This document shows, one piece after another, positions 3,831-30,497 of a DNA stretch of 64,000 bases. The position numbers were made by a program, and so were the translations under genes. The notes beneath the pieces are model-generated. The model was given only the letters and a program-made list of their open reading frames with translations. It was not told the origin of the DNA and did not search any database. The DNA is from Nitrospirota bacterium (lineage in GTDB: Bacteria; Nitrospirota; Thermodesulfovibrionia; Thermodesulfovibrionales; Dissulfurispiraceae), in NCBI GenBank assembly GCA_963790025.1, contig CAWBMP010000002.1:224001-288000 (forward strand), written 5' to 3'. Position 1 is the first letter of the stretch, and every line of letters begins with the position of its first letter.

Positions 3831-3831
3831 G

Positions 3832-5573: not shown

Positions 5574-5583
5574 TTTTCTCTCC

Positions 5584-6012
5584 TTATTTGGCGCCTTTCT
5601 CGCTGTAAAATTTCAGGTCCGTTTTTTTAAGAAGTTGTTTTGCGTTCTCTATGTCCTTGACCTCAACCAGCAGATAGGCCCTCTTCCTGGATTCAGCAAC
5701 ATATACGGATGCATTTTCTATGTTGACGTTATTTTGTGCAAGGACGTGAACCACTTCGTATAATCCTCCAGGCTGGTCCGTCATTTCGATGGCAAGCACT
5801 TCGGTGAGGGAAACCGTAAAACCGGCCTCCTTCAGTTTCTCAAGTGCAAGCTCGGGCTTGTCGACCATGAGCTTGATGATTCCGAATGCATTTGTGCTGG
5901 TAATTGATATGGCAAGAATATTGACTTTAGAATCAGAGAGGACTTTTGTCACTTTTTCCATCTTGCCGAGCTTATTTTCTGCAAATATCGAAATTTGCGT
6001 TACCTTGTCCAT
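5584..6012 (-). CDS. Tandem ACT-domain protein (second paralogue)
   Basis: [13 protein letters not shown]...VNILAISI and DQPGGLYEV; clearly homologous to 3832..4263. Confidence 0.85.
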
Positions 6013-6072
6013 AGCCGCTCCCCCTTTTAGGTCTCGTGAAAAAATAATGCTGACTCATTTTTTCGTGAGATA

Positions 6073-7380
6073 TTACAATGTCCTGTTGTCTATGACTCTC
6101 TTTGCCTTCCCCTCACTGACCGGTAGTGTGCCCGGCTCCAAAAGATCCACTTTAGGTTTTACCAGGACAGCAGACCTTATCCTGTCCGTTATCAATTTTT
6201 TCAACTCCAGGAGGTGCTCTATGTTCCCGTCAAACACGCCTCTCGATATCTCAACTCTAATGGTCATGTCGTCATAAGATTCGAGTATGATCTGGTAATT
6301 CTCGGCAACACCCTTGATGCACATCAGCACCTGCTCTATCTGCTGCGGGAATATGTTGACCCCCTTTACGATGAACATGTCGTCAGACCGCCCGATAATG
6401 CGTGATATCCTTCGATGCGTTCTGCCGCATTTGCATTTCCCTTCCACGACTTTTGTAATGTCTCGCGTGCGGTAACGGAGTATAGGCATCGCATCGCGCT
6501 GCAAGGTAGTGAAAACCAGTTCTCCCTCTTCACCTTCCGGGACTTCTTCTCCTGTTTCAGGGTTGATTATTTCCATTAAAAACATATCTTCCCATATGTG
6601 CATTCCGTTTTTCTCGGTGCATTCAAAACCGACGCCCGGGCCGTTCATTTCTGTCAGGCCATATGAGTTGTAAACATCTATGCCGAAGATATTCTCAAGC
6701 TTTCCTCTTGTCTCTTCAGAGTAAGGTTCCGCGCCCAGATATGCCCTCTTGAGTTTCAGTCCTGTCTTAGGATCGATCCCTCTCTTCTGCAGGACTGCTC
6801 CGAGATACAGCGCATAACTTGGTGTTATATGAATGGCTGTAGTGTTGAAATCCTGCATCAGCGCGATCTGCCTGTCCGTATTCCCGGGTCCAGCCGGAAT
6901 CACAAGAGCGCCCAATTTCTCGGCGCCATAATGCATGACAAGGGCCCCTGTAAAAAGACCGTAGGTCATCATGTTCTGCAGTATATCGCCTTTTGTCATT
7001 CCGGTCATTGTAAGGCACCTGGCAATCAGTTGAGCAGAATTGTCTATGTCCTTCCCCGAGAAAAATATCGCCTTTGGCTTGCCGGTGGTGCCGCTTGAGG
7101 TATGAAGCCGCACCACATTGTCCTTCGGAACTGCAAGCATTCCAAAAGGATAGTTCAACCTTAGGTCATCCCTCGTGGTAAATGGAAGTCTTTTGATATC
7201 TTTCAGTGTTTTGATGTCCGATGGTTTGACTTTCAATTCATCAAATCTATCTTTGTAAAATGAGACCTTCCGGTACACATTCCGTACCGTCTTTTGGAGC
7301 TTCTGAAGCTGGAAAGCCTCCAGTGTCCTTCGTCCCATTGTTTCAACCTGCTTTTGCCAGAACATCTTTGTCCCTCTCAT
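6073..7380 (-). CDS. paaK: Phenylacetate-CoA ligase family protein (paralogue 2)
   Basis: [52 protein letters not shown]. Confidence 0.9.
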   Translation of the reverse strand: MRGTKMFWQKQVETMGRRTLEAFQLQKLQKTVRNVYRKVSFYKDRFDELKVKPSDIKTLKDIKRLPFTTRDDLRLNYPFGMLAVPKDNVVRLHTSSGTTGKPKAIFFSGKDIDNSAQLIARCLTMTGMTKGDILQNMMTYGLFTGALVMHYGAEKLGALVIPAGPGNTDRQIALMQDFNTTAIHITPSYALYLGAVLQKRGIDPKTGLKLKRAYLGAEPYSEETRGKLENIFGIDVYNSYGLTEMNGPGVGFECTEKNGMHIWEDMFLMEIINPETGEEVPEGEEGELVFTTLQRDAMPILRYRTRDITKVVEGKCKCGRTHRRISRIIGRSDDMFIVKGVNIFPQQIEQVLMCIKGVAENYQIILESYDDMTIRVEISRGVFDGNIEHLLELKKLITDRIRSAVLVKPKVDLLEPGTLPVSEGKAKRVIDNRTL

Positions 7381-7952
7381 CTAATCTCTCTGCCTGTTTC
7401 AAATGCCTTTATGTTTATTTCTGTCGTTTTGGCCGGTACCGACTCTTCGATCGCCTTCTGCCAATCCGCCATAGTAAAAGGAAGATAACGGGAGAGGGCA
7501 CCGACGAGAATAATGTTTTCCACCTTGAGGTTGCCCAATTCTTTGGCGATCTCAAGCGCTTTAATCACGTCAACCCGGAATCCCCGGGATTCCATCTTTT
7601 CTTTAATGTTTTCCGGGTACCTGGAGTTTTCAGGGATTATGATGGACGGTGCCACCTGTTTGCTGTTAAGTATCACCTGTGCCGCGGGTCGCAGAAAATA
7701 AGTATATCTGAGTCCTTCAAGTTCTTCGAGGGCGACCATAAAATCGGCCTTGCCCCTTGGAATCAGGGGTGAATAGACCTCTTCACCAAAACGGACATGG
7801 CTGATTACGCTGCCGCCTCTCTGGGCCATCCCGTGAAGCTCGCTCTCTTTAACCATGAAGCCGGCTGTGAATGCACATTTCGCAAGGATTTTGCTGGCCA
7901 AAACAATCCCCTGGCCTCCCACCCCTGCCAACAATATACTTGTAATATTCAC
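7377..7952 (-). CDS. iorB: Indolepyruvate:ferredoxin oxidoreductase beta subunit
   Basis: GVGGQG and SELHGMAQRGGSV motifs. I place the start at GTG 7952; the ORF-track extension runs into a repeat element. Confidence 0.88.
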   Translation of the reverse strand: MNITSILLAGVGGQGIVLASKILAKCAFTAGFMVKESELHGMAQRGGSVISHVRFGEEVYSPLIPRGKADFMVALEELEGLRYTYFLRPAAQVILNSKQVAPSIIIPENSRYPENIKEKMESRGFRVDVIKALEIAKELGNLKVENIILVGALSRYLPFTMADWQKAIEESVPAKTTEINIKAFETGREIR

Positions 7953-8035
7953 GAGCCGCCCTTTCTGTTGAAAGTTAAAAATAGCTAAAAATTTTATCAC
8001 ACATCCGGGAATTACTGCAACCGGCGTTGGTAGTG

Positions 8036-8243
8036 GGTAGTGGGTCAGTTTGTTTTTGCTCTGGATCACAGTGGTTCTCAGCAGTGGGGTGGTACCGCCC
8101 GCCCCATAAATCGAGAAAGGGGTCCCCGAAAAGTCACAGACTTTTTGGGGTGCAGTTGGGCTCCCAGATAATCTTCAGTACGTGCCGGTGATGGAAACTA
8201 AAGACTATTTGATCCAGAGGGAAAAACAAACTGACCCACTACC
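8036..8243. mobile_element. MITE-like element with ~33-bp terminal inverted repeats
   Basis: GGTAGTGGGTCAGTTTGTTTTTGCTCTGGATCA (8036-8068) and its near-perfect reverse complement (8210-8243); the first 22 nt are identical. There is an internal hairpin at 8124-8150 and no transposase. Confidence 0.55.
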
Positions 8244-8257
8244 AACCATCGCGCACA

Positions 8258-8436
8258 TGCAGTAAAACATGGCATAGCCGTCTTTCGGCCAAATAAAACT
8301 ACTATTGTTCCAGTCAAAACATTTAATTGTAGACTAGTACGCAATAATCACAGCGTTGGGGCTCGGCGTCACTCGCCCCCGCTACAGCAGACCCGTGATA
8401 TTTTGCCGAAAGACGGCTATGCCATGTTCTGCTGCA
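8258..8436. repeat. Second long inverted-repeat element (38-bp arms)
   Basis: TGCAGTAAAACATGGCATAGCCGTCTTTCGGCCAAATA (8258-8295) versus the reverse complement of 8399-8436; 3 mismatches. Confidence 0.8.
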
Positions 8437-8561
8437 GCGGTATGTGCTTTATTGATCTAGTATATTGTTTTTATAGCTGAAAATTTGCTATCTTATGATG
8501 CTCATAGAGGCATTGGATACTTTTTCATTATAAATATAGTTATGGAACAAAGGGGGGTCAA

Positions 8562-9719
8562 ATGAAAAGAGTTACAACAGTGTTTTTTGCACTGACCGGA
8601 TTTCTTTTATCGTTGTTAGTTACAGGGAGCACATATGCCGCAGAGCCCTACAAGGTCGGTGCGGTTTTTTCCGTGACAGGAGCGGCTTCTTTTCTGGGTG
8701 AGCCCGAGAAGAATACGGCCCTGCTGCTGCAGGACCAGATCAATAAGGCCGGAGGCATAAACGGCCATCCGCTTGAGATCATCATTGAGGACTCAAAGAG
8801 TGATGAAACTCAGGCCGTGCTTTCCGCCAAAAAACTCATCGAAAGAGATAAAGTGCTTGCCATCATCGGGCCCTCAACCACAGGAGAGTCAATGGCCCTC
8901 GTGCCTATAATGAACAGTGCCCAGACTCCTCTTATTTCGTGTGCGGCAGGAGCAGGCATAACCCAGCCTGTTGAAGAAAGATACTGGATATTCAAAACTG
9001 CTCAATACGATACCAGCGCTGTTGAGGCGATCTATACATACATGAAAAAGCATGGCATCTCAAAGATCGGCATTATCACTATATCAACCGGGTTCGGCGA
9101 TGCCGGGAAAAAAGCCCTCCTCGAAACAGCTTCCAGATACGGCATTAAAATAGTCGCTGATGAAAAATACGGACCAAAAGATTCCGATATGACAACCCAG
9201 CTTGTAAAGATTAAGGCAACGGGTGCCCAGGCGATTATAAACTGGTCTGTGGGCCCCGGTCAGGTGATCGTAACGAAAAACTGGCAATCATTAAAGATGG
9301 GAATCCCTCTTTATCAGAGCCATGGATGGGGAAGCAGGAAGAACATCGAACTTGCCGGCAAGGCATCTGAGGGAGTTATCTCTCCTCTTGGCAGGCTCGT
9401 TGTATGGGAGAAGATGCCGGTCACGCATCCCCAGTACAACCTGCTGAAAAAATTTACCGTGGATTATGAGGCCAGGTTTAAAGGAGAACCGGGTACATTT
9501 GGCGGACATGCATACGATGCGGTCATGATAATAGAAAAGGCAATTAAGAATGCCGGGGGAGACAAAAAGAAGATCAGGGACTATATTGAAGCCAAAATAA
9601 AAAAATGGCCGGGTGCAGGGGGTATCTTCAACATGTCTCCTAAGGACCACTGCGGCCTCGACAAGACAGCATTTGAAATGGTGGTTGTCAAGAACGGAGA
9701 TTGGGAAATATTGAAGTGA
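8562..9719 (+). CDS. Liv-type (HAAT family) ABC transporter substrate-binding protein
   Basis: Signal peptide, INKAGGINGHPLEIIIED and YDAV motifs of the LivK-like fold; heads the permease/ATPase operon. Confidence 0.9.
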   Translation: MKRVTTVFFALTGFLLSLLVTGSTYAAEPYKVGAVFSVTGAASFLGEPEKNTALLLQDQINKAGGINGHPLEIIIEDSKSDETQAVLSAKKLIERDKVLAIIGPSTTGESMALVPIMNSAQTPLISCAAGAGITQPVEERYWIFKTAQYDTSAVEAIYTYMKKHGISKIGIITISTGFGDAGKKALLETASRYGIKIVADEKYGPKDSDMTTQLVKIKATGAQAIINWSVGPGQVIVTKNWQSLKMGIPLYQSHGWGSRKNIELAGKASEGVISPLGRLVVWEKMPVTHPQYNLLKKFTVDYEARFKGEPGTFGGHAYDAVMIIEKAIKNAGGDKKKIRDYIEAKIKKWPGAGGIFNMSPKDHCGLDKTAFEMVVVKNGDWEILK

Positions 9720-9729
9720 GCTTGATCAT

Positions 9730-10617
9730 TTGCTGACCGTTTTTTTGCAGTTTCTTTTTTCAGGCCTCACCGTCGGGGCAGTTTACGCCCTGGTCGGCAC
9801 GGGGTTTAATATCATTTACAATGCCACCTCTATCATCAACCTGGCCCAGGGAGAATTTGTCGTAATAGGCGGCCTGATGATGTGGTTCTTCACGGAATCT
9901 GTAAAACTGCCTTTCTTAGTCTCAATTCTTCTCACCATCCTCACGGCTGGACTTGTAGGGCTTCTGATGGAGAGGCTGACAATAAGGCCCCTGAAAAAAA
10001 CAGACCTCCTTCTCATGATAATGATCACTATCTCCGTCTCAATTGTTTTGCGGGGAATCCTCATGTTCAAGTTCGGGAAGGACACCTATTCTTACGATCC
10101 ATTTACAGAGGGTGAGCCGATCAGCATATGCGGCGCAATCATCCAGCAGCAGACGTTGTGGGTCATCAGCGTGACGGCTTTATGCATAGTCCTGCTGTTC
10201 CTCTTCTTCAGCAAAACGTTAATTGGCAAAGCGATGAAGGCGTGCTCGGTGGACCCCACTGCAGCGAGGCTGGTCGGAATAAATGTATCTCAGATGGTAA
10301 TGCTTTCGTTCATTTTCAGCGCCATGGTGGGCGCCATAGGCGGAATAGCAATAACTCCCATTTCGTTGATGCAATACGACAACGGGCCCATGCTCGCCGT
10401 AAAGGGCTTCTGCGCCGCAATAATGGGAGGACTGGGAAGAGGCAGGGGTGCGGTCCTCGGCGGATTTCTGATCGGCATCCTGGAATCCATGACAGCCGGA
10501 TATCTGAATTCCGGGTTGAAAGACGCAGTCGCGCTCATAATACTCCTGCTGGTACTTTTCTTCAGGCCTTCCGGTATTTTAGGGAGCAGTGCCGCGGCCC
10601 GGCTGAGAAAGTTTTGA
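9730..10617 (+). CDS. livH: Liv-type ABC permease (LivH-like)
   Basis: SGLTVGAVYALVGTGFNIIY...IINLAQGEF, GKAMKA...AARLVGIN, LFFRPSGILG. Confidence 0.88.
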   Translation: MLTVFLQFLFSGLTVGAVYALVGTGFNIIYNATSIINLAQGEFVVIGGLMMWFFTESVKLPFLVSILLTILTAGLVGLLMERLTIRPLKKTDLLLMIMITISVSIVLRGILMFKFGKDTYSYDPFTEGEPISICGAIIQQQTLWVISVTALCIVLLFLFFSKTLIGKAMKACSVDPTAARLVGINVSQMVMLSFIFSAMVGAIGGIAITPISLMQYDNGPMLAVKGFCAAIMGGLGRGRGAVLGGFLIGILESMTAGYLNSGLKDAVALIILLLVLFFRPSGILGSSAAARLRKF

Positions 10618-10619
10618 CC

Positions 10620-11570
10620 ATGGACAGATCGAACTCATTGGCGATGCTGATTTTCGTGCTTCTTATTGTCTCTCTGCCCTTCCTGGCAGGAAGCAGCTAT
10701 ACATTAACGGTCGGTATTTTTTCGGGAATCAACGCGCTCGTTGCAATCGGACTCTGTATCCTGATGGGATTTGCCGGCCAGATATCTCTTGGACAGGCAG
10801 GCTTCTACGGCATAGGGGCTTATGTATCATCCATCTTAAGCGCACATTACGGCTTGCCGGTCATAACGAGTCTTGCTCTCGGAATGTTGGCTGCTGCGCT
10901 GGCTGCGGTCGTTCTGGCTGTCCCATCTTTAAGGTTGCAGGGCCATTATCTTGCAGTTGCGACACTCGGATTCGGTGAGATAGTTCAAATTGCCCTGAAC
11001 GAATGGGGACCGGGCGGTCCCTCCGGATTCGGTGACATACCCCAGTTCGGCATTTTCGGACACACCCTCAAAACAACAGCAGGTTATTTCTATCTCATCT
11101 GGTTGATCGTCGCTGCGATTTTGACCTTTTCTTTGAACCTTATGAACTCGAGAAGCGGCAGGGCCTTGAAGGCGATCCACGGCAGCGAGCTTGCAAGTAA
11201 CGCGATGGGACTGGACGTAGTTACGCTTAAGATCAAGGTGTTTGTACTCAGTGCAGTCTATGCTGCGCTTGCAGGCGGCCTTTACGCGCATTACATTACA
11301 TTTATAAGCCCCGGCAGCTTTTCATTTTTCTATTCAATTCTGGTGTTGATGATGGTCGTTGTTGGCGGGATTACAAATCTGTGGGGCGGTATAATCGGCG
11401 CCATAGCTATAACGATACTGCCGGAGCTTTTAAGACAATTCGAAGAATTCGATGTGCTTGCATATGGCCTGATACTGACACTCTCGCTGCTGTTCTTAAG
11501 AAAGGGCATCGTCCCGCTTCTAATTGATAAATTCAAAAAATTTAGGGGAGTTACAGTTGCTCGAAGTTAA
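10620..11570 (+). CDS. livM: Liv-type ABC permease (LivM-like)
   Basis: From ATG 10620 (MDRSNS): GFAGQISLGQAGFYGIGAY, LRLQGHYLAVATLGFGEIV, MVVVGG. Confidence 0.88.
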   Translation: MDRSNSLAMLIFVLLIVSLPFLAGSSYTLTVGIFSGINALVAIGLCILMGFAGQISLGQAGFYGIGAYVSSILSAHYGLPVITSLALGMLAAALAAVVLAVPSLRLQGHYLAVATLGFGEIVQIALNEWGPGGPSGFGDIPQFGIFGHTLKTTAGYFYLIWLIVAAILTFSLNLMNSRSGRALKAIHGSELASNAMGLDVVTLKIKVFVLSAVYAALAGGLYAHYITFISPGSFSFFYSILVLMMVVVGGITNLWGGIIGAIAITILPELLRQFEEFDVLAYGLILTLSLLFLRKGIVPLLIDKFKKFRGVTVARS

Positions 11571-12307
11571 AAAGATGACAAAGTATTTCGGAGGGCTGAG
11601 GGCCCTGAATAACGTGAGTTTAAGTGCCACGGAAAACTCTATCAGCGCTCTTATCGGCCCGAATGGCGCAGGGAAAACGACCCTCTTGAATATCATCACC
11701 GGCATGTATGCTGCGGACAAGGGAGAGGTTTTTTTCTCGGGCATCGACATAAGCAGTCTGTCTACTCTCACGAGATCAAGGCAGGGCATCTCGCGGACTT
11801 TTCAGCATCTGGAATTGTTCGGAGAGATGACAGCACTGGAAAACATCATGGTCGGCAGATATTCAAAGACAAAAGCGGGTTTCATCTCTTCAGGACTAAG
11901 GCTGCCTTTTGTTATAAGGGAAGAGAAGGAGGCAAGACGCAGGAGCGAAGAGATCCTTGAATATGTCAATCTGGGCCACAGGATAAACGACATTGCATCA
12001 AATCTTCCTGCAGGAGAGCAAAGGACACTCGAAATCGGGAGGGCACTTGCAACGGAGCCAAGGCTTCTTCTGCTCGATGAGCCCGCTGCTGGATTGAACA
12101 TCAAAGAGACCCGCAGTCTTGGCGAGATGCTAAAAAAGATGCGCTATGAAATGGACATAACTATTGTCCTTGTCGAACATGACATGGACCTTGTAATGCA
12201 TATAAGCGACAGGATAACCGTTCTGAATTTCGGGGAGGCAATAGCAGAAGGCACTCCACCGGAAATCCAGAAAAACAAAGCAGTAATAGAAGCATATCTC
12301 GGGGTCG

Positions 12308-12318
<11 letters not shown>
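11557..12318 (+). CDS. livG: Liv-type ABC ATP-binding protein (LivG-like)
   Basis: Walker A GPNGAGKTT, RTFQ, LLLLDEPAAGLN, VEHDM. TTG start with a GGGGAG RBS. Confidence 0.88.
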
Positions 12319-13120
<802 letters not shown>

Positions 13121-13160
13121 AGGGTAGAGTCCTGCTTCAAACAATTACAAGGAGGGTGCT

Positions 13161-14459
13161 ATGTACTGGGAAGCCGTGAAGGAGTGCATGTCGAGGGAGG
13201 AACTCGAACAGTTGCAGCTTGAGCGTTTGCAGTCAACGCTTTTCAGGGTATATATGAACGTACCTTTTTATAAAAAGAAATTTGATGAACTTTCAATAGA
13301 TCCCGACGGTATCCGTTCTCTGGAAGACCTTCAAAGACTTCCCTTCACCACCAAGGATGATCTGAGAGAGAGCTATCCCTATGGCATGTTTGCTGTGCCT
13401 TTAAGGGAAGTTGTCAGGGTGCAGGCTTCATCGGGGACAACGGGAACGCCAACAGTAGTCGGCTATACGAGCAACGATATAAAAAACTGGTCCAATCTCG
13501 CAGCCAGGATACTCACCGCCGGGGGAGTTACGCAGAATGACATCGTCCAGATTGCCTTCGACTACGGCCTTTTTACCGGAGCGTTGGGCCTTCACTATGG
13601 TGCGGAAAGGTTGGGGGCATCGGTCATACCGATATCAAGCGGCAATACCAAGCGGCAGGTCAAAATAATGGAGGATTTCAAGACAACGGCACTCATGTGT
13701 ACACCCGGCTATGCCCTTGCCATTGCGGATACGATAATCGAAATGGGAATAAACGTGAACTCTTTTTCACTGAGATACGGTCTTTTCGGCGCTGAACCAT
13801 GGTCTGAAGGGCTTCGCCGTGAACTTCAGGAAAAGCTCAAAATAATTGCAACCGACAATTACGGACTTAGCGAAGTCATGGGCCCGGGTGTTGCCGGTGA
13901 ATGCCTCGAGCGCAACGGCCTTCACATCAACGAAGACCATTTCCTGGTGGAAGTGGTCGACCCCGAGACGCTTACTCCCCTTCCTCCCGGTAAAACGGGG
14001 GAGTTGGTCATCACTTCGCTCACTAAAGAGGCCTTCCCGGTGATCCGGTACAGGACAAGAGACCTCACAAGCCTTATAGCAGGGCCCTGCCCTTGCGGCA
14101 GGACATTAGTCAGAATGGGCAAGGTGATGGGCAGGACAGACGACATGATAAAAATAAAGGGAATCAATGTATTTCCCTCCCAGATTGAGTCTGTGCTTTT
14201 CGAGATCGAAGGCGCTGAGCCGCACTATCAGATCACAGTGGACCGCAAAGGTCCTGTTGATGAACTGACCGTGTCCTTCGAAGTATCGGAATCCATCTTT
14301 TCCGACCAGATGGAAAACCTGGGGGAATTCATTGGGACTGTGAAAGCGAGGCTGGCAACAGAACTCGGCATCCCTGTGGAGGTTATGCCGGTGGAAAAAA
14401 ATACTATTGACAGGTCAGAGGGTAAGGCCCGGCGCGTAATAGACAAGCGAAGAATTTAA
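13161..14459 (+). CDS. paaK: Phenylacetate-CoA ligase family protein (paralogue 3)
   Basis: ASSGTTGTP, YGLSEVMGPG, RYRTRD, GRTDDMIKIKGINVFP, SEGKARRVID. Confidence 0.9.
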   Translation: MYWEAVKECMSREELEQLQLERLQSTLFRVYMNVPFYKKKFDELSIDPDGIRSLEDLQRLPFTTKDDLRESYPYGMFAVPLREVVRVQASSGTTGTPTVVGYTSNDIKNWSNLAARILTAGGVTQNDIVQIAFDYGLFTGALGLHYGAERLGASVIPISSGNTKRQVKIMEDFKTTALMCTPGYALAIADTIIEMGINVNSFSLRYGLFGAEPWSEGLRRELQEKLKIIATDNYGLSEVMGPGVAGECLERNGLHINEDHFLVEVVDPETLTPLPPGKTGELVITSLTKEAFPVIRYRTRDLTSLIAGPCPCGRTLVRMGKVMGRTDDMIKIKGINVFPSQIESVLFEIEGAEPHYQITVDRKGPVDELTVSFEVSESIFSDQMENLGEFIGTVKARLATELGIPVEVMPVEKNTIDRSEGKARRVIDKRRI

Positions 14460-16611: not shown

Positions 16612-17343
16612 ATGGACGATTTGACAGGTAAAGTGGCTCTTGTAACAGGGGCGAGCCGTGGTATCGGACGGGCTATCGCTTTAGCTCTTGCCGCTGCCGG
16701 TGCAAATATTGCGGTTAACTACCGGAGTCGTGACAACGAAGCGACAGAGGTAATTTCACGGATCAGGAGGTCCGGTCGTCTTGCCGTGGCACTCAAAGCA
16801 GATGTGTCAGTTTCGACTGACGTCGACCGAATGGTCGCTATAACACAAAAAGAACTGGGCACACCATCCATCCTTGTGAACAATGCCGGAATAGGCACGA
16901 CGCATTCTATCGACGATATAACTGAACAAGACTGGAACTACACAATGGCTGTGAATCTCACGTCGGCATTTCTCGTGATTCAGGCCGTACTTCCGGGCAT
17001 GCGTGCCCTTAAGTGGGGACGTATAATCAGCCTTTCCTCGGTCGCAGCACAGATCGGCGGAGTTGTGGGTCCTCATTACGCTGCATCAAAAGCCGGCATT
17101 CTGGGATTGACTCATTATTACGCTACTCACCTTGCCAAGGAAGGTATTACAGTCAATTCTATCGCTCCCGGACCTGTCAGCACTGAAATGGCGGCCGGCA
17201 TTCGGCTACTGAAACCCGATCTGGTGCCGGTTGGTCGTTTTGGCACTGTAGAGGAGATATCCGACGTAGCTCTCATGCTTGTTCGCAACGGCTATATTAC
17301 AGGTCAGACGATTGGTGTCAACGGGGGCAGATATCTGAGCTGA
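16612..17343 (+). CDS. Short-chain dehydrogenase/reductase (FabG-like)
   Basis: TGASRGIG, VNNAG, catalytic YAASK, ITGQTIGVNGG. Confidence 0.92.
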   Translation: MDDLTGKVALVTGASRGIGRAIALALAAAGANIAVNYRSRDNEATEVISRIRRSGRLAVALKADVSVSTDVDRMVAITQKELGTPSILVNNAGIGTTHSIDDITEQDWNYTMAVNLTSAFLVIQAVLPGMRALKWGRIISLSSVAAQIGGVVGPHYAASKAGILGLTHYYATHLAKEGITVNSIAPGPVSTEMAAGIRLLKPDLVPVGRFGTVEEISDVALMLVRNGYITGQTIGVNGGRYLS

Positions 17344-17372: not shown

Positions 17373-17618
17373 TCAAGCGCTTCCACTTTTCCGCGCTGCC
17401 TTATGACATTTAAAGCATTCGAATTTGGGAGGATGGGTCCTTTTAAGTGCGTTTTTTTTGCCGGGACCATGACATTCCATGCACGCTGTGCTGTTGCTGA
17501 CCTCAAGAGCCTTGTGAACGTTGTCGCCGGGGACTTGTGGATAACGTTTTCCCGAAATAGAGTATAAGACTGATACGATAATGAGCACGAAAATTATAAA
17601 CATGATTGTGCTTTTCAT
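17373..17618 (-). CDS. Small membrane-anchored dihaem cytochrome c
   Basis: N-terminal hydrophobic segment, two CxxCH motifs (CMECH, CFKCH) and two further His residues as candidate distal ligands. Confidence 0.8.
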   Translation of the reverse strand: MKSTIMFIIFVLIIVSVLYSISGKRYPQVPGDNVHKALEVSNSTACMECHGPGKKNALKRTHPPKFECFKCHKAARKSGSA

Positions 17619-17747: not shown

Positions 17748-17775
17748 TTGACAACGTACCGGATAATGATAACAT
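17748..17775 (+). promoter_or_regulatory. Putative sigma70 promoter of the selenopeptide gene
   Basis: TTGACA (17748-53), 16-nt spacer, TG-n-TAACAT extended -10 (17770-75). Confidence 0.45.
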
Positions 17776-17857
17776 TTGAGTATATGCATGATTTCTTGGT
17801 TGGAAGTTTCTTCGACGTAACAGAAAGAGTTGCGGCACATAGGGAAGGAGGTTTATT

Positions 17858-18058
17858 ATGGATTCAGCGGATTTGAAAAGGATTCTTGCGGGTTTCAGCA
17901 TCGCTGTCCTGCTCAGTTCTGCTATTGCTCTTTCAGGTTGTTCATCGAGTTGATCCGGGTCCAAAAAAGAGGGTGCCGGGAGCACCCAGAAGGAGCAGTC
18001 TGAACAAAAGCCAGGAGAAAAACCAGGTCAGAGCGGCTGAAGCGGTTCAAAGAAATAG
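17858..18058 (+). CDS. Putative two-selenocysteine lipopeptide / selenobiotic-type RiPP precursor (66 aa with UGA recoding)
   Basis: AAGGAGG RBS, then MDSADLKRILAGFSIAVLLSSAIALSGCSSS-U-SGSKKEGAGSTQKEQSEQKPGEKPGQSG-U-SGSKK*. TGA codons at 17951 and 18038 are each followed by a SECIS-like hairpin; the terminal stop is TAG 18056. Confidence 0.82.
17971..17987 (+). promoter_or_regulatory. SECIS-like hairpin 1
   Basis: GGGTGC-CGGGA-GCACCC starting 17 nt after TGA 17951-53, with G at the second loop position. Confidence 0.65.
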
Positions 18059-18072
18059 TGCCGTAGGCACTA
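18056..18072 (+). promoter_or_regulatory. SECIS-like hairpin 2
   Basis: TAGTGC-CGTAG-GCACTA starting 15 nt after TGA 18038-40; it shares the GTGCCG-nnn-GCAC core with hairpin 1. Confidence 0.65.
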
Positions 18073-18884: not shown

Positions 18885-19004
18885 TTATGAATACCGCTCA
18901 TATGTAATAATAATGCTTTGCAAAGGTGAATTGCAATAACAGCAGCTTGCACTTGCAATTTCTGAGGAATCAATGAATAATATTGCTTTGATCTTGGCTT
19001 TTTC

Positions 19005-19436
19005 GTGGCACAACAGGAGGTTTGCGTGGGCAGGATAAAAAACATCATCCAGGGCGACAGGCTTTTTCACCTCTTCGGTATGGAATTGGTGGAGGCCTCT
19101 GAGGGCCACGCCGTTGTACGGGCGGAGGTGAAGGAAGACTTTCTCAACGCCCACGGGATCGCCCACGGTGGGCTGATATTCGGACTCCTGGACGTCGTAT
19201 TCGCATTGGCTGTAAACTCCATAGTCGATGCCGTCGGCGTGCAGTGGAGCTTTAACGTGTTCCGCTCCACAACAAAGGGAGATTTTGTGAGGGCCGAGGC
19301 CAACACTGTACATAAGGGCAAAAGCCTGCTTGTGGTCGAATTCAAGGCCGACAGTGAAACATCCGGAAAGCTTATAGCCCAGGGAATGGCGACCGCGCTG
19401 CCGCTGCCACACAGAGAAAAAAAGGATAAAGTATGA
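19005..19436 (+). CDS. paaI: PaaI family (hot-dog fold) acyl-CoA thioesterase
   Basis: FLNAHGIAHGGLIFGLLD motif; located in an aryl-CoA ligase cluster. Confidence 0.82.
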   Translation: MAQQEVCVGRIKNIIQGDRLFHLFGMELVEASEGHAVVRAEVKEDFLNAHGIAHGGLIFGLLDVVFALAVNSIVDAVGVQWSFNVFRSTTKGDFVRAEANTVHKGKSLLVVEFKADSETSGKLIAQGMATALPLPHREKKDKV

Positions 19437-19587
19437 AACCACAGAGTGCACGGAGAAATCCTCTGTGTTCTCTAAAAGAATTTCTGAGGAATAAAAAAAC
19501 TAATAGTTTGAGAGGACACAGAGTGGAGAGAATCAAGTTTTTTCAAACTTTTTTATATCAAAGGGTTACTCTGCGTTCTCTGTGGTT
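19437..19587. repeat. Nested imperfect inverted repeats between paaI and aroF
   Basis: Outer pair AACCACAGAG (19437) ... CTCTGTGGTT (19587); inner pair CTCTGTGTTCTCT (19461) ... AGAGGACACAGAG (19523). Confidence 0.65.
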
Positions 19588-21810: not shown

Positions 21811-23118
21811 TTAGTATGTCCTTGTGTCGAAGACTCTCCTGGTTTTCTTTTCGGTCCGGGGCAGGCTGCCGTAAGGCAGGATCTCAACCGTGCCGGACAC
21901 CATAAGTTGGTGCTTCAATTTTTTTGAGATTATTTCGGCGAGACCTTCGTCGGCGCTATGATGGATATTCACATCCCTTTCCACCTTCAGCGTCATGTAG
22001 TCCCTGCCGTCTGAACAGTGTTCGAGATGGACCTGGTACTCGCTTCCGACTCCCTTGACGCCCGAAAATACCTCGTCTATCTGCCCCGGGTAAACATTTA
22101 CGCCCCTGAAGATGAACATGTCATCAGACCTCCCAAGTATTTTGTCATGCCGCGGCAGGAGGCAGCCGCAGGGGCAGTCGTCCGGGACAAGCCTCGTCAG
22201 GTCCCTTGAACGGTAGCGGATGAGGGGGGAGCCTTCTTTGCAAAGAGTGGTAAAGACCATCTCACCGATCTCGCCCGGTCCGACGGGTTTCAAAGTCTCC
22301 GGGTTCAGGATTTCGAGGATGTAGAAGTCGGCCCAGTAATGGATGCCGTCATTGTATTTACAGCTCAGGCCGGTACCTGGGCCGTACAGCTCGGTCAGAC
22401 CGGTAATGTCGTAGACCTCTTCTATTTTGAGGAGTTCCTTTATCTTCTTTATCATGGCGCTGCTGGTCCGCTCGGCGCCGAGTATGATCTTTTTGAGATT
22501 GATCTTGTCCCGCAGGTTCCGGCGATGGACCTCCTCTGCCAACAGCAATGCCATGGAAGCTGTAGAACATACAACTGTAGTCTGCATATCGACCATAAAG
22601 GTACACTGCAGCTCCATATTGCCGGGACCTATAGGTATGGTAAGTGCCCCAAACTTCTCGCAGCCGAGCTGGAACCCGGCGCCTGCTGTCCACAACCCAT
22701 AGCCCACGCATATCTGCACCCTGTCTTCGCGGGTCACACCCGCCAATTCGTAACACCTCCCGAACATATATGCCCAATCGTCTATGTCCTTCTGCGTATA
22801 GGAGAGGATTTTCCTTTTACCGGTCGTTCCGGAAGAGGAATGCAACCTGACGATTTCGGTGAAATCAACCGCCCTCAGAGGAAACGGGTATTCGTTCCTC
22901 AGGTCTTCGGCTGTAGTGAAGGGCAACCTCTCAATGTCCTCAATCTGCTCAATATCTTCAGGCCTCACGCCTGCCGAATCAAGACGTCCCCTATAAAATT
23001 CCGAGCGGTGATAGGCGTGTGATACAGTCCATTGCAGGCCTTTCAACTGGTGCGTCTTTAAACCTTCCGGCATCCCTGCCCTGGGCGGGAACCTCTTGAG
23101 TGTAGATCCGTTATTCAT
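21811..23118 (-). CDS. paaK: Phenylacetate-CoA ligase family protein (paralogue 4)
   Basis: HSSSGTTGKRK, GLTELYGPG, RYRSRD, GRSDDMFIFRGVNVYP. Confidence 0.88.
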   Translation of the reverse strand: MNNGSTLKRFPPRAGMPEGLKTHQLKGLQWTVSHAYHRSEFYRGRLDSAGVRPEDIEQIEDIERLPFTTAEDLRNEYPFPLRAVDFTEIVRLHSSSGTTGKRKILSYTQKDIDDWAYMFGRCYELAGVTREDRVQICVGYGLWTAGAGFQLGCEKFGALTIPIGPGNMELQCTFMVDMQTTVVCSTASMALLLAEEVHRRNLRDKINLKKIILGAERTSSAMIKKIKELLKIEEVYDITGLTELYGPGTGLSCKYNDGIHYWADFYILEILNPETLKPVGPGEIGEMVFTTLCKEGSPLIRYRSRDLTRLVPDDCPCGCLLPRHDKILGRSDDMFIFRGVNVYPGQIDEVFSGVKGVGSEYQVHLEHCSDGRDYMTLKVERDVNIHHSADEGLAEIISKKLKHQLMVSGTVEILPYGSLPRTEKKTRRVFDTRTY

Positions 23119-23687
23119 ATATTCACCTTTTCGCCGCGAAGCACACCGAGGTCAAATGCCGACATGGATGCCTTCAGGAGTTTGTCACGGTCAGCAAGTT
23201 TTTGATGGAGTATTGCCCTGATATCTTCAGGGTCGCAGAAGGCTTGCTTGCCGGTCCTGCCGAGGGCCGAGAGTGCGAAGCCTATAAGAATGAGGTTCAC
23301 AGACCCCGGCTGATGAACTTCCTTTGCCAATGCGTCAGCATCTATACAGAGCACTTTCCCGTTCCCGGTCCCCTCGGGTCGTGAAAGTGCATTAACAACG
23401 ACAACCCCACTTGGATTAAGGTAAAAAAGATGGCTCCGCAGGTTTTCCTCTTTCAGCAGCAGGAGGACATCGGCCTTGGCCGGCCTGATCAGGGGGCTTG
23501 TAAATCCGCCAACTTTCAGGTGTGAAACAACGATACCTCCACGTTGAGCCATACCGTGGGTTTCTGCGGTCAAAACGGGATATCCCCTGTAAATGGCGGC
23601 CCCGGCCAGGACACGTGTGATGAACAAGATGCCTTGCCCGCCAACCCCACTAACTATGATCTGCTGTCGTTCAGAAGGGGCGTTCAC
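23115..23687 (-). CDS. iorB: Indolepyruvate:ferredoxin oxidoreductase beta subunit (second copy)
   Basis: GVGGQG and AETHGMAQRGG; GTG start at 23687 overlaps the iorA stop (GTGA coupling). Confidence 0.85.
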   Translation of the reverse strand: MNAPSERQQIIVSGVGGQGILFITRVLAGAAIYRGYPVLTAETHGMAQRGGIVVSHLKVGGFTSPLIRPAKADVLLLLKEENLRSHLFYLNPSGVVVVNALSRPEGTGNGKVLCIDADALAKEVHQPGSVNLILIGFALSALGRTGKQAFCDPEDIRAILHQKLADRDKLLKASMSAFDLGVLRGEKVNI

Positions 23688-25501
23688 TCCATCTCCACCT
23701 TTTTGATCGCCTTTCTGGGACAGACATGGATACATATCCCGCAGCCGCTGCACACGAGTTGATTGATCCTCGCCTGCTTGCCGCTTTCATCATATTCGAT
23801 GGCAGGGCATTCGAATTGTTTTATGCAATAAGAGCAGCCATCGCATGATGAAGATATGTCGACATCGATGCGCTCACTCTTCGCTTCTTTCGCCCGTTTA
23901 TCCACGAGGCATGGATGACGTGAAATCACCACTGCCAGGCCTTTGTCCTTTGCGTATCTGCGCGCCGACCTGAGGAGCCTTGTAAACGCTGACATATTGT
24001 AAGGATCTCCCACACGGCAGAACTTGACGCCGCAGCTCTTGACGATCCCCTCTATCGAAATCTTCACAAGCGGATTGCCGCAGGCGTCTATTCCCGTTGC
24101 GGGGGTAGGCTGATTACCGGTCATAGCGGTTGTGGAGTTGTCAAGCACCACCAGGACAAATCGTGCGTCCTGCACAACCGCGTCCATGAGCGCCGGGACC
24201 CCGGCATGGAAAAATGTGGCGTCACCGATAGTGGCTACAATATCCGTGTCCTTGCCGCCTAATCTGAATGCTTGATAAAAACCCGCTGCCTGGCTGATCG
24301 AGGCGCCCATGCAGAGCGCGGTGTCTATAGCACCCAGGTTCAGACCAAGTGTGTAACAGCCTATGTCACTCGTGTAAATGGCGCCGGGGACTGCCTTTTT
24401 GATCGCAAAGAAACTCGCACGGTGCGGGCATCCTGCGCAGAGGCTGGGTCGCCTGCCGCCCTCAGAGGTGCTCTTTAACTCAGTTTTTGCAACGGAGCAG
24501 AAAATCGATATGGTCCCTTCGATGATTTCCGGCAACAACTCACCGGACCCCGGAATGAAGCCGTTTAAACGGCCCCTTACCTTATTCCTGTCCGCTATCT
24601 GCATTTCCATAACAGGTGCGCTTTCTTCGATCACCAGAATATCTTCGTACCTGTCCAGGACATCTTTTATAAACCCGGAATGCAGAGGGAACGGCTGTAG
24701 GACCTGATAGACGGCAACCTTATTCAAGATACCAAGATCGGACATAATCTCCTGCACATGGGCAGCCGCAACGCCAGAGGTTACGATGGCCTTTGAAGAG
24801 ACAATGCCTGGATTTAGAAGACGCGGTTTGGTAAGATCGTGGGCAGCCAGCGCCGCCAGTTTTTCATTCAGCTTGGTGTGGAGTATGTAGCGATACCTTG
24901 GGGTTGCAGCCCATCTGGCAGGGTCTTTTTTAAAGGCCGCAGTACGATCAGTAAGCTTCACCTCTTCAAGCTCAATATCCTGCCCGCCATGGCAGACTCT
25001 TGTGGTCGGCCTTAGCATCACAGGCACCTCGAATTCCTCTGAAAGTTCATAGGCAAGACCCACAAACTCCTTTGCCTGCTCCGGTCCGGCAGGGTCCAGG
25101 ACAGGCACTTTGGCAAACATTGCCATCAATCGGCTGTCCTGTTCCGTCTGCGAGGAGTGCGGCCCCGGGTCGTCAGCACTGATGACAATGAAACCGCCCT
25201 TTGCGCCCATGTAGGCGGCACTCATAAGCGGGTCGGAAGCAACATTGAGACCCACCTGCTTCATACTTACTGCAGTGCGAAGCCCGGCGATGCTGCCGGC
25301 ATAGGCTATCTCAAACGCAATCTTTTCGTTTACAGCCCATTGGGCATGAATAGGCAAGGAGAGTTCAGCTTTCCATTTGACAATTGCCGGGAGGATCTCC
25401 GAGGCCGGGGTGCCCGGGTAGGAAAGGGCCATGGAACAGCCGTTTTCCACAAGTCCTCGAGCTATGGCCTCATTGCCGATCATTAGAATGCGATTATTCA
25501 C
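23684..25501 (-). CDS. iorA: Indolepyruvate:ferredoxin oxidoreductase alpha subunit (full length)
   Basis: GNEAIARG, SMKQVGLNVASDP, RPSLCAGCPHR, GDATFFH, and a C-terminal 2[4Fe-4S] domain (CDGCSYC...ECP, CSGCGICIHVCP). Confidence 0.92.
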   Translation of the reverse strand: MNNRILMIGNEAIARGLVENGCSMALSYPGTPASEILPAIVKWKAELSLPIHAQWAVNEKIAFEIAYAGSIAGLRTAVSMKQVGLNVASDPLMSAAYMGAKGGFIVISADDPGPHSSQTEQDSRLMAMFAKVPVLDPAGPEQAKEFVGLAYELSEEFEVPVMLRPTTRVCHGGQDIELEEVKLTDRTAAFKKDPARWAATPRYRYILHTKLNEKLAALAAHDLTKPRLLNPGIVSSKAIVTSGVAAAHVQEIMSDLGILNKVAVYQVLQPFPLHSGFIKDVLDRYEDILVIEESAPVMEMQIADRNKVRGRLNGFIPGSGELLPEIIEGTISIFCSVAKTELKSTSEGGRRPSLCAGCPHRASFFAIKKAVPGAIYTSDIGCYTLGLNLGAIDTALCMGASISQAAGFYQAFRLGGKDTDIVATIGDATFFHAGVPALMDAVVQDARFVLVVLDNSTTAMTGNQPTPATGIDACGNPLVKISIEGIVKSCGVKFCRVGDPYNMSAFTRLLRSARRYAKDKGLAVVISRHPCLVDKRAKEAKSERIDVDISSSCDGCSYCIKQFECPAIEYDESGKQARINQLVCSGCGICIHVCPRKAIKKVEME

Positions 25502-25815: not shown

Positions 25816-27033
25816 ATGAAAAAGAGGTTTTTGTTCTTTCTGCTCATATGTCTGTTCATAATTGCGCTTACATCGGGATGCGCAACTAAACAGGTTGCGA
25901 AATGCAACTCTCCCGAAGACAATCCCCAGCACCATTATCTCATGGGCATGGAGGCGCTGGAGAAAGGTGATCTTGATGCCGCCCAGGCCAAGTTTGATAG
26001 GGCCTTATACTGCGAAGATAATTTTTCTCCTGCTTACAGCGGACTGGCAATTGTGGCAGCCGGGAAGGCAAAAATCCAGCACGATGCCGGTTTTGGCAAG
26101 GTGGAAACTGACAGGGCGCTGGACTATCTAAAAAAGGCGGATAAGTTTTCAGAGACGCCGGAGGACAGGTTCGATTATCTGACCGCAACCATCAGAGTTT
26201 ATACGGCCATCAAGACAGAACAGTGGCTTAAAAAATCTACAGAAGCCTTTGACGACATAAAAGACCTTAAGGTCGATGAAAGAAAACTGACCTATTATCA
26301 GGGCACCGAGGCTGCTATCTACTTCATGGGTGCTGCCTATGTTAAAGCTCTCGAATTTCAGCAGGCACGGGACAAGTTTGCAGAGGTCCTGAATGCAAAG
26401 AAAGAGGGAAAATGGCATGAAAAGGCAGACAAGTTATGGAAGAAAACAGACAAGATCCTTCGTGCGATGGCGGGTATTACTGTTGGCAATATTGGCAGGA
26501 AAATAGCCATAAAAGATAGCATCACCCGAGGAGATCTTGCTGCCCTTCTTGTCGACGAGTTAAATATCGATCAACTCTCTGCCGGGCGCATTCCAGCGCA
26601 GTCCCAGACAGATAAAATCAAAGCCGAATTCATTCCTGCAGATGTCCTCAACTATCATTTCAAAGACGAAGTGCTTAACATTTTGAAATGGAAGATCAGG
26701 GGCCTCGAGCCGAAGTATGATGAAACAACCCAGGCATATCTCTTTAAACCGGCAGATAAGGTAAAGCGCGGTGAAATGGCCCTTATAATGGAAGATGTGC
26801 TGATCAAGCTCACAGGCAACGAGAAGCTTGCCACGGCTTATTTCGGACAGGAGAGGTCTCCGTTTCCTGATGTAAAACCGACTTCGGCTTTTTACAACGC
26901 AGTAATGAACATGACAACACGGAACATCATGGAAGGCGAACTCTCCGGTGAATTCAGGGTAGATGATCCTGTTGATGGGGCCGATGCGCTGCTTGCAATA
27001 AGGGTGTTAAAGACGAAAATGAATACGTATTAA
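25816..27033 (+). CDS. Lipoprotein with TPR-like helices and C-terminal S-layer homology (SLH) repeats
   Basis: Lipobox LTSGC; TPR-like HYLMG...A..F..AL; SLH-like FKPADKVKRGEMA and FPDVKPTSAFYNAV...IMEG...FRVDDPVDGADAL. Confidence 0.75.
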   Translation: MKKRFLFFLLICLFIIALTSGCATKQVAKCNSPEDNPQHHYLMGMEALEKGDLDAAQAKFDRALYCEDNFSPAYSGLAIVAAGKAKIQHDAGFGKVETDRALDYLKKADKFSETPEDRFDYLTATIRVYTAIKTEQWLKKSTEAFDDIKDLKVDERKLTYYQGTEAAIYFMGAAYVKALEFQQARDKFAEVLNAKKEGKWHEKADKLWKKTDKILRAMAGITVGNIGRKIAIKDSITRGDLAALLVDELNIDQLSAGRIPAQSQTDKIKAEFIPADVLNYHFKDEVLNILKWKIRGLEPKYDETTQAYLFKPADKVKRGEMALIMEDVLIKLTGNEKLATAYFGQERSPFPDVKPTSAFYNAVMNMTTRNIMEGELSGEFRVDDPVDGADALLAIRVLKTKMNTY

Positions 27034-27106
27034 AAACCGAGAGCTCAACACACAACTCATAGGTGGTTTGAGTGCTCGGCAGCACGATATTTGAAGGAGG
27101 GCTTTC

Positions 27107-28045
27107 ATGAAAAGAACGATAATTTTAACATTGCTTTTGCTTTTCTCAATTGCCGGCGTTGTTTTTGCGCAGCAAGATGACATGTCGTCTCAGCAAGAGA
27201 AGTCTGCCATTTACCAGAGATTCGAGGCCGCCAATAAATGGCTGAACCTGAACAATCTTTCAGTAACAAATACTCAGCAGCAGGCTTTTATCAACGACTA
27301 CGTCCTTGTCGCAGGAGAAGGACTCCCGTCTCCTGCTTCGCAATCACCTGCCCAGAGAAGACTGACCGCAATAAGGGCCGCAACAATTGTTGCGTACCGG
27401 CAGTTGGCAGAATTCCTGGACGGTTTTTCCGTCGTGGGTGACACAATGGTCAGAGACGCTGCACTTCAGTATGACGTGATAAGGTCCGCGGTCTCCGGAT
27501 TTGTAAAAGGTGCGCAGGTTGTTTATGAGGAATACAATGATCAGGAAGGAGTAGCAATTGTTCTTGTCAAAATAGGCATGACAGGGCCGCAGGGCTTTGG
27601 GGAAAGAATGTACGATAAGCTTTTGGGAAATGCTGATATCAAAAATGCTGTTGTTCATCCTTCGCAGATACCTGCGTATAAACATAAACCCGTGCCTCTG
27701 GATGAGAAATACGATGGTCTGGTCATTGACGCTACCGAACAGAATTTCAGGCCTGCCTTAATCAACAGAATATTTACGGTAAAAGGCGACATTATCTACG
27801 ACCCGTCGAAAGTAAGCCAGAAGGTGCTTGTTGAACAGGGATGCGGAGAGTACACAAACAGTGTCGATAAGGCTAAGGCTGCCCTCGCCTCGAGAGGGGT
27901 CAAGAACCCCTTGCTGGTAAAGGCAGTAGGCACTGTGTCTGCATCCGACCTCCAGGTCTCCGATGATGATGCGGTAACGATATACTCTGCAAACCAGAAA
28001 GGTGGCTTTTTCGCCGCTGCAAAGGTGGCTTTTGTTCTTAAATAA
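27107..28045 (+). CDS. Periplasmic protein with LPP20/FlgP-like domain
   Basis: Signal peptide; AIRAATIVAYRQLAEFLDG..V.G.TMVRD...VSGFVKGAQVV; C-terminal GLVIDA...PAL..RI domain. Confidence 0.65.
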   Translation: MKRTIILTLLLLFSIAGVVFAQQDDMSSQQEKSAIYQRFEAANKWLNLNNLSVTNTQQQAFINDYVLVAGEGLPSPASQSPAQRRLTAIRAATIVAYRQLAEFLDGFSVVGDTMVRDAALQYDVIRSAVSGFVKGAQVVYEEYNDQEGVAIVLVKIGMTGPQGFGERMYDKLLGNADIKNAVVHPSQIPAYKHKPVPLDEKYDGLVIDATEQNFRPALINRIFTVKGDIIYDPSKVSQKVLVEQGCGEYTNSVDKAKAALASRGVKNPLLVKAVGTVSASDLQVSDDDAVTIYSANQKGGFFAAAKVAFVLK

Positions 28046-28109
28046 ACAAAGGCGACGGGTTCCATACCCTATAACTTATAGCCTGCGTTATTGCAAGGAG
28101 ATTAAGGGA

Positions 28110-30395: not shown

Positions 30396-30497
30396 GCAAA
30401 AGGCAAAAGGCTAAAGGCTAATGGAAAAAGACAAGAAATCATTTCTTCATTTTTACGTCGTATTGGCCCTTCGCCTTTTGCCTTTTGCCCTTAGCCT
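30394..30497. repeat. Inverted pair of heptamer tandem arrays straddling the transglutaminase start
   Basis: AGGCAAA-AGGCAAA-AGGCTAA-AGGCTAA (30394-30421) and TTCGCCT-TTTGCCT-TTTGCCC-TTAGCCT (30470-30497). Confidence 0.75.

Follow-up and report, generated by a model that had tools for sequence, protein, structure and literature searches.

The closest described counterparts of the gene reported here are the precursor peptide SbtA and its maturase SbtM (TIGR04081/TIGR04082), of which the SbtM of G. lovleyi has been characterised. According to section 5 of PMC9204691, sbtM co-localises with a gene for a peptide in which a stop codon is directly followed by a selenocysteine insertion sequence (SECIS). 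The newer annotation described in that section is a longer peptide with at least two selenocysteines, generally in the motif GGUG (U, selenocysteine); the modification resides in a Gly-Cys or Gly-selenocysteine unit, and the pair seemed confined to Geobacter and "Desulfbacteria". The account of the enzyme in PMC9204691 states that G. lovleyi SbtM acts on a minimal peptide and turns cysteine or selenocysteine into a thio(seleno)oxazole, with a change of -4 Da per site, and section 14 of PMC11002830 likewise places the SECIS after the stop codon and attributes a -4 H change to SbtM. A table in PMC13188914 lists a "Selenobacteriocin" under TIGR04081 with the motif SGUG and two selenocysteines, and Nitrospirae are named in the same source among the lineages with selB/selC. 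SbtA peptides with two selenocysteines and SECIS elements are already described, and the gene that we analysed in a 64-kb stretch of contig CAWBMP010000002.1 (the whole stretch is referred to as the window) is another member of this described family and architecture. Gene finders cut it at 31 codons; its product is most likely a 66-residue exported peptide with two selenocysteines.

When compared with the SbtA/SbtM pair as those sources present it, the locus is alike in the profile match of its leader, in the combination of UGA codons for selenocysteine with SECIS-like elements downstream, in the number of two selenocysteines, in the small core and in the Gly and Ser residues around the selenocysteine positions. 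It departs from the published pair in that the latter is co-localised, whereas the window holds no sbtM, and in its motifs, which are S-S-U-S-G and S-G-U-S-G rather than the published GGUG or SGUG. Its host, probably a member of the Thermodesulfovibrionales (Nitrospirota), is unlike the Geobacter and 'Desulfbacteria' hosts of the published accounts. Finally, a lipoprotein-type leader is found here and in most of the family, a feature of which the review sections on SbtA make no mention.

Further parallels are offered by other families of modified or selenium-containing proteins. Bufferins (BufA, with the multinuclear non-haem iron-dependent oxidative (MNIO) proteins BufB/BufC), in the parts of PMC11626156 that bear on the comparison, also carry Sec signal peptides, their cysteines are converted to 5-thiooxazoles while still in the cytoplasm, and after export these rings bind copper in the periplasm. 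They differ in belonging to another precursor family, in depending on an oxygen-dependent MNIO rather than a radical S-adenosylmethionine (SAM) enzyme, in having no selenocysteine, and in being folded proteins of 80-120 residues that follow signal peptidase I instead of the lipobox route. The lipoproteins DybA and NedA, which are ribosomally made peptides with post-translational modifications (RiPPs) described in PMC13056109, are alike in that, in the relevant part of that paper, a lipobox precursor is modified in the cytoplasm and then lipidated and cleaved; they are unlike in being MNIO-modified, in lacking selenocysteine and in their unrelated precursors, and neither 'radical SAM' nor 'selenocysteine' occurs in the main text of that paper. 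Other bacterial selenoproteins with two selenocysteines, for instance MbdU and TsoB, share with our gene, as far as the entries in PMC13188914 describe them, more than one selenocysteine UGA in a single open reading frame (ORF), each in need of a SECIS of its own, and differ in being enzymes or domain proteins rather than short repeat-module peptides with a signal peptide.

The SbtA-like gene lies on the forward strand (Table 1). Direct reading of the sequence places a strong Shine-Dalgarno sequence, GGGAAGGAGG, at a spacing of 6 nucleotides (nt) from the ATG, and the frame then runs to a TAG codon. With TGA read as U, it translates into the 66 residues MDSADLKRILAGFSIAVLLSSAIALSGCSSSUSGSKKEGAGSTQKEQSEQKPGEKPGQSGUSGSKK, the two in-frame TGAs being codons 32 and 61. 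A sequence-only reading of the window had proposed a hidden gene here on the basis of a strong ribosome-binding site, a signal peptide with an LSG-C lipobox, TGA at these two codons and a closing TAG, all of which are present. That reading had also held that standard gene callers miss the gene. This is correct insofar as gene finders end it at 31 codons, but a near-orthologue of 31 residues is already named SbtA precursor at NCBI. This protein, P0017, is the nearest orthologue, comes from a Thermodesulfovibrionales metagenome-assembled genome (MAG), is 84% identical and is truncated, ending at the same SSS as the leader in the window. Regarding the genetic code, 14 of the 43 confident genes of the window (genes with family matches) end normally in TGA, which rules out a general recoding of TGA (code 4 or 25); read-through at the SbtA-like gene must therefore be site-specific. 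No other read-through candidate in the window resembles a selenoprotein. Two ORFs overlapping the locus were rejected, namely an 88-residue one on the forward strand with a single NCBIfam match at E 0.2 and an 86-residue one on the reverse strand with no family match, neither having any other support.

The leader, residues 1-28 (MDSADLKRILAGFSIAVLLSSAIALSGC), has the composition of a lipoprotein signal peptide: K7 and R8 in the n-region, the hydrophobic core ILAGFSIAVLLSSAIA, and the lipobox L-S-G-C ending in Cys28 (codon 17939-17941), the lipobox pattern applied being [LVI][ASTVI][GAS]C after a K/R n-region and a hydrophobic core. The NCBIfam model TIGR04081 matched the 31-residue ORF at 31.2 bits (E 1.3e-7), above its curated cutoff of 30.5, in agreement with the resemblance to this family that had been proposed in the earlier reading. 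As a control, the 148 most hydrophobic, K/R-bearing N-termini were taken from the 747 ORFs of at least 25 residues in the window; the SbtA-like leader alone matched TIGR04081, with 0 of the 147 others doing so even at E<=1. The Pfam model LPAM_1 scored 18.8 bits on the leader, under its cutoff of 20. Across the 75 family proteins described below, a leader core was found in all 75, and [GAS]C followed the hydrophobic core in 62. The leader of the window gene is a signal peptide typical of the SbtA family, complete with a canonical lipobox, and the family leader in general is a signal peptide that usually bears a lipobox. Diacylglyceryl modification and LspA cleavage are predicted at Cys28. This cysteine follows Gly27, and as a Gly-Cys unit it could be a target of the maturase instead of, or besides, being lipidated.

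Beyond the leader, both TGAs are followed by S-G-S-K-K, encoded as TCC GGG TCC AAA AAA after the first and AGC GGT TCA AAG AAA after the second. The use of different synonymous codons, which had been taken as a sign of selection on the protein past the stops, was borne out: the two TGA-SGSKK modules are identical at 13 of 18 nt, and all five differences are synonymous, including a switch between TCN and AGY serine codons (TCC/AGC). For protein searches the read-through peptide was queried as positions 17858-18054, that is, 65 residues with the last Lys missing. The first, word-indexed search at E<=0.01 gave no match, and the same search at E<=10 gave a single protein, P0005, in which four TS-C-SG-x-K modules come after the same leader and which is a TIGR04081 member at 50 bits. 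BLASTP of the window peptide against P0005 gave E 2e-12 with 24 of 44 residues identical and Cys opposite U32. Another protein, P0078, carries SS-C-SGSKKE and a C-terminal SS-C-SGSK and represents a cysteine twin of both window modules, and the U61 column of the family alignment holds Cys or W in at least 20 family members. In the alignments, both UGAs stand at positions that are Cys in relatives, each as part of a repeated S-[U/C]-S-G-x-K module; the conservation past the stops and the Cys/selenocysteine exchange in homologues that the sequence-only reading had implied were found in P0005 (at U32), in P0078 and in further members of the alignment. With respect to the Gly/Ser core motif of the family, U32 stands in SSS-U-SG and U61 in QSG-U-SG, the published motif being matched exactly only as S-G-U at the second site.

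Each TGA is followed by a hairpin. The first (GGGUGC/CGGGA/GCACCC) begins 17 nt after its TGA, and the second (UAGUGCC/GUA/GGCACUA) begins 15 nt after its own, with the stop codon of the gene within its 5' arm. As described in the earlier reading, they share a core, GUGCC-N3-5-GCAC, and vary in the outer pairs, which are GG/CC in one and UA/UA in the other; at the DNA level this core occurs twice in the window, both times at the SbtA-like locus. Folding in 29-nt windows gave -11.1 kcal/mol (z -3.04) for hairpin 1, matched by 1 of 200 shuffles, and -9.1 kcal/mol (z -2.95) for hairpin 2, matched by 3 of 200, and folding in 45-nt windows starting from the TGA gave weaker values (z -0.39 and -1.83, respectively). 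The bacterial SECIS (bSECIS) model in the legend to Fig. 2 of PMC13188914 specifies a loop of 3-9 nt, a stem of 4-16 bp, a G at loop position 1 or 2, a UGA-loop distance of 16-37 nt and a minimum free energy <= -7.5 kcal/mol. Both hairpins pass, in keeping with the SECIS-like character first ascribed to them. Hairpin 1 has 6 bp, the loop CGGGA with G at position 2, a UGA-loop distance of 23 nt and -9.6 kcal/mol as an isolated stem-loop; hairpin 2 has 7 bp, the loop GUA with G at position 1, a distance of 22 nt and -8.5 kcal/mol. The background rate of fit to this model was 65 of the 2310 TGA triplets on both strands of the window (2.8%). No Rfam family was found at gathering thresholds anywhere in the window.

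A wider view of the family was obtained with a profile built from the window peptide and P0005, which retrieved 75 proteins at E<=1e-3 from 1.84 billion cluster representatives. Once P0038, an unrelated repeat protein of 611 residues, had been dropped, the remaining 74 and P0005 gave a family set of 75 database proteins. TIGR04081 matched 76 of 76 sequences when the window peptide was included. Under a narrow module definition, Cys modules are present in 22 of the 75, W takes the module position in 4, and 49 are without a module; a wider definition yields 85 modules in 29 proteins and leaves 46 proteins without one. The dipeptide [STGA][SGA] precedes Cys or W in 76 of the 85 modules, with TS or SS in 44, and Ser before Cys is the commonest module context in the family. 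The four proteins with W at the exact module position are P0027, P0054, P0062 and P0075; all 10 of their Trp residues stand there, no Cys follows the leader in any of them, and their S-G-W-G motif corresponds to the SGUG listed in the table of PMC13188914. We infer from these proteins that their W represents TGA read under a TGA=Trp code.

These W forms, grouped with the window peptide as selenocysteine-type (U/W), provide a link between the modules and the hairpins. Hairpin 1 encodes G-A-G-S-T, and pentapeptides like it stand behind 6 of 7 internal selenocysteine-type modules and behind 0 of 55 internal modules with Cys (Fisher p 1.1e-7; 1.0e-6 without the window peptide). In 5 of 5 selenocysteine-type proteins the last such residue is followed by only 3-5 residues, so that its SECIS has to sit at the stop codon or past it, and this fits the position of hairpin 2. 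Taken at the protein level, the hairpin appears to be tied to selenocysteine across the SbtA family. The proteins without a module are informative as well: 44 of these 46 end in [STGA][SGA], as opposed to 10 of the 29 module-bearing ones (p 1e-8), the background frequency of the dipeptide in the family set being 509 of 2353. Because these ends are the dipeptide that precedes Cys or selenocysteine, most module-less entries look like selenocysteine forms cut at the first UGA, and approximately 60% of the family representatives (46 of 75) appear to be such truncated forms in public protein sets.

Taking these observations together, we consider it highly probable that a free-standing gene at this locus specifies an SbtA-family precursor (TIGR04081, thio(seleno)oxazole RiPP) of 66 residues with two selenocysteines. 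We extend this judgement to the mechanism outlined here, in which the insertion of selenocysteine, the lipidation and the action of an SbtM from another part of the genome are predictions, as is any role in metal binding. SelB with selenocysteinyl-tRNA(Sec) would recognise each hairpin, and selenocysteine would be inserted at both U32 and U61; the stop codon and the 3' untranslated region are overlapped by the second SECIS. An SbtM-type radical SAM/SPASM maturase, supplied from elsewhere in the genome, would then convert each selenocysteine, together with the carbonyl group of the residue before it, to a selenooxazole in the cytoplasm. The Sec translocon would export the peptide, Lgt would lipidate Cys28 and LspA would remove the leader, and the outcome would be a Lys-rich lipopeptide of 39 residues anchored in the membrane. 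By analogy with bufferins, we conjecture that its likely role is soft-metal binding or a related redox function.

Several results weigh against this interpretation. Neither selA, selB, selC nor selD was found in the window, nor was a tRNA of any kind, and SbtM (TIGR04082) is absent from the 17.8 kb upstream and the 45.9 kb downstream that the window covers. The published family co-localises with sbtM, and the nearest radical SAM gene here lies 43 kb off. In no other gene of the window does a genuine frame contain the radical SAM CxxxCxxC motif; this SPASM-like gene was ruled out as SbtM, having weak matches to named families (<=109.5 bits), with TIGR04082 absent among its best 25 NCBIfam matches. 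The 65-residue read-through query scored 28.7 bits on TIGR04081, just below the cutoff, and codon-usage log-odds over 63 codons did not tell the frames apart, with +4.8 bits for the SbtA-like frame and +7.8 and +6.4 bits for two minus-strand frames. No Rfam SECIS family was found at E<=10 in 17800-18150, where there were two noise matches only. On the minus strand the hairpins fold slightly better (z -3.63 for hairpin 1 and -5.83 for hairpin 2), and both are terminator-like there, with the T-rich tails TCTTTTTTGG and TTCTTTGAAC. The peptide gene is absent from two Nitrospirota loci of 20.7 kb each that share the downstream neighbour gene, where the best tblastn match (E 0.06) is noise, and, with both syntenic loci lacking the gene, the hairpin DNA is seen at one locus only. 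Lastly, the view of W as mistranslated TGA comes from proteins.

The alternative that survives best, which we nevertheless regard as improbable, is that both selenocysteines are translated with no SbtM to act on them, leaving an unmodified, lipid-anchored di-selenol peptide that serves, for example, in membrane redox or in metal or metalloid handling. The lack of any SbtM in the window is compatible with such an orphan selenolipoprotein, as are the small membrane-anchored dihaem cytochrome-like gene that adjoins the locus divergently and the residue before the first selenocysteine, which is Ser and not the Gly of the Gly-Cys(selenocysteine) unit characterised in PMC9204691, section 5. Against it stands the leader, which is conserved and is the part recognised by the family model; a RiPP leader usually serves the maturase. 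Likewise, TS or SS before Cys is so frequent in the family that Ser at this position is its commonest context, and the search for SbtM covered 64 kb alone. RiPP precursor genes are commonly located away from their maturase.

Returning to the precursor with two decoded UGAs, its survival as a functional gene is placed in question by a second alternative, namely that the locus is the relic of a former selenocysteine or Cys form of SbtA whose UGAs can no longer be decoded, either through loss of the selenocysteine machinery or through nonsense mutations. The missing selenocysteine machinery in the window and the absence of the gene at two related loci, where its position is not conserved, would agree with decay. 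We judge this very unlikely, as the gene has its frame and module intact along with its two hairpins, its leader and its strong Shine-Dalgarno sequence, and the close orthologue P0017 ends at the same SSS. That two independent nonsense mutations should fall on just these Cys positions, and that a fitting hairpin should follow each of them, is improbable, the chance of a fit being about 2.8% per TGA.

Hairpin 2 starts 43 nt past the stop codon of the convergent gene downstream, and terminator-like sites, of which 3 were called, compare with 0.8 +/- 1.2 in shuffles. These sites, the better minus-strand folds and the annotation of the orthologue as a protein of 31 residues are what would be expected if the hairpins were solely tandem intrinsic terminators of that gene and translation ended at the first TGA. 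This last alternative is the least credible of all, since it leaves unexplained the two in-frame TGA-SGSKK modules with synonymous changes only, the Cys at the UGA positions of relatives and the GAGST pentapeptide that tracks selenocysteine-type modules on unrelated contigs, would reduce the product after signal-peptide cleavage to the four residues CSSS, and treats as T-tails the codons for Lys, an amino acid in which the module is rich in Cys forms as well (SGxK, SGMKKEG). Under the selenocysteine interpretation, the hairpins may also serve as terminators of the convergent gene besides their role in selenocysteine insertion.

Table 1. Features of the SbtA-like locus and of other regions discussed, with positions counted from the first nucleotide of the window.
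Feature	Position	Strand	Basis or remark
Short-chain dehydrogenase/reductase (SDR) gene	16612..17343		Beyond the dihaem ORF, upstream of the peptide gene
Dihaem cytochrome-like ORF	17373..17618	-	Divergent, upstream of the peptide gene
Candidate promoter, TTGACA-16 nt-TAACAT with TG extension	17748..17775	+	About 83 nt upstream of the ATG
Shine-Dalgarno sequence	17842..17851	+	Sequence reading
SbtA-family precursor of 66 residues, coding sequence with two UGA codons as putative selenocysteine (ATG at 17858, TAG at 18056-18058)	17858..18058	+	Translation, TIGR04081, BLASTP to P0005, family alignment
Leader, lipoprotein-type signal peptide (residues 1-27) and lipobox Cys28	17858..17941	+	TIGR04081, lipobox
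UGA codon 32, putative selenocysteine, in S-S-S-U-S-G-S-K-K	17951..17953	+	Cys in P0005 and P0078
SECIS-like hairpin 1, 6-bp stem, loop CGGGA, encodes G-A-G-S-T	17971..17987	+	Folding, bSECIS model
UGA codon 61, putative selenocysteine, in Q-S-G-U-S-G-S-K-K-stop	18038..18040	+	Family alignment column of Cys/W
SECIS-like hairpin 2, 7-bp stem, loop GUA, 5' arm includes the TAG stop	18056..18072	+	Folding, bSECIS model
Secreted protein of 255 residues	18117..18884	-	Convergent, downstream of the peptide gene
ORF of 188 residues, probably spurious	18885..19451	-	Overlaps the thioesterase ORF
PaaI-like hotdog thioesterase	19005..19436	+	Pfam 4HBT, TIGR02286
Regions with aromatic/aryl-acid catabolic genes	1804..14459 and 21811..25501
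Run of envelope and signalling genes	25816..35389	+
Sensor histidine kinase, apparently split	40813..41373 and 41412..43745	-	Two ORFs in different frames
Radical SAM gene, SPASM-like	61245..62408	-	CxxxCxxC motif

Regarding the genomic neighbourhood, the candidate promoter upstream of the gene is at chance level (1 site per 1 kb against 1.1 +/- 1.2 in shuffles). The divergent ORF upstream encodes 81 residues, with a membrane helix at the N-terminus and the haem-binding motif CxxCH in two copies (CMECH and CFKCH); its matches to multihaem-cytochrome Pfam families are sub-threshold, the best having E 0.0033. The convergent 255-residue protein downstream was considered as a LolA-like lipoprotein carrier and rejected (Pfam LolA_like, E 0.0022, 18.1 bits, cutoff 30), and its AlphaFold model is of low confidence (mean predicted local distance difference test 45.5). 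Its only relatives in a scan of genome contigs are in two Nitrospirota MAGs, one 63% and the other 57% identical, and synteny with these two loci is confined to this one gene. These relatives and the name given to P0017 are the two indications that make a Nitrospirota origin of the window likely. A tblastn search of a plasmid collection gave no match to the peptide gene. Further downstream, the PaaI-like hotdog thioesterase gene matches Pfam 4HBT at E 2.3e-8 and TIGR02286 at E 3.7e-22 (78.7 bits, below the cutoff of 118.9), and beyond it lies a gene for 3-deoxy-D-arabino-heptulosonate 7-phosphate (DAHP) synthase.

In more distant parts of the window, four genes for PaaK-like phenylacetate-CoA ligases, two indolepyruvate:ferredoxin oxidoreductase-like sets and a Liv-type amino-acid ABC transporter are distributed over two regions, which suggests a catabolic island for aromatic amino acids and aryl acids. 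A run of envelope and signalling genes comprises those for an SLH-domain protein, a NosD/TPR protein with a GNA1162-like lipoprotein domain, a transglutaminase-like protein, a FecR-domain protein and a CHASE2 adenylate/guanylate cyclase. The apparently split sensor histidine kinase consists of an N-terminal ORF of 777 residues and a C-terminal one of 186 residues, and the split could reflect a frameshift, a sequencing error or a pseudogene. The radical SAM gene is surrounded by sugar aminotransferases, a BshB-like deacetylase and glycosyltransferases, the setting of a sugar-modification cluster.

For the annotation of this genome, the gene would be corrected from a stub of 31 residues to a peptide of 66 residues with two putative selenocysteines, and the same truncation seems to affect most entries of the family. 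The range of selenium-bearing SbtA peptides thereby comes to include a probable member of the Thermodesulfovibrionales (Nitrospirota), in which the locus is free of a maturase gene, and the nature of the leader predicts a membrane-anchored selenooxazole lipopeptide. On a broader scale, we offer as a tentative and rather doubtful proposal that the seleno/thio-oxazole peptides of the SbtA family may as a class be exported and in most cases lipid-anchored, forming the anaerobic, radical-SAM equivalent of the copper-binding bufferins, with 46 of the 75 representatives being truncated selenocysteine forms; the Nitrospirota copy would then be an orphan precursor matured in trans or an unmodified di-selenol lipopeptide, perhaps acting with the divergent dihaem cytochrome-like gene. 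The GAGST signature of an internal SECIS offers a simple protein-level flag for selenocysteine forms that have been read with the wrong code, and, if the truncation reading is true, selenium use in the SbtA family would be much commoner than its annotation shows.

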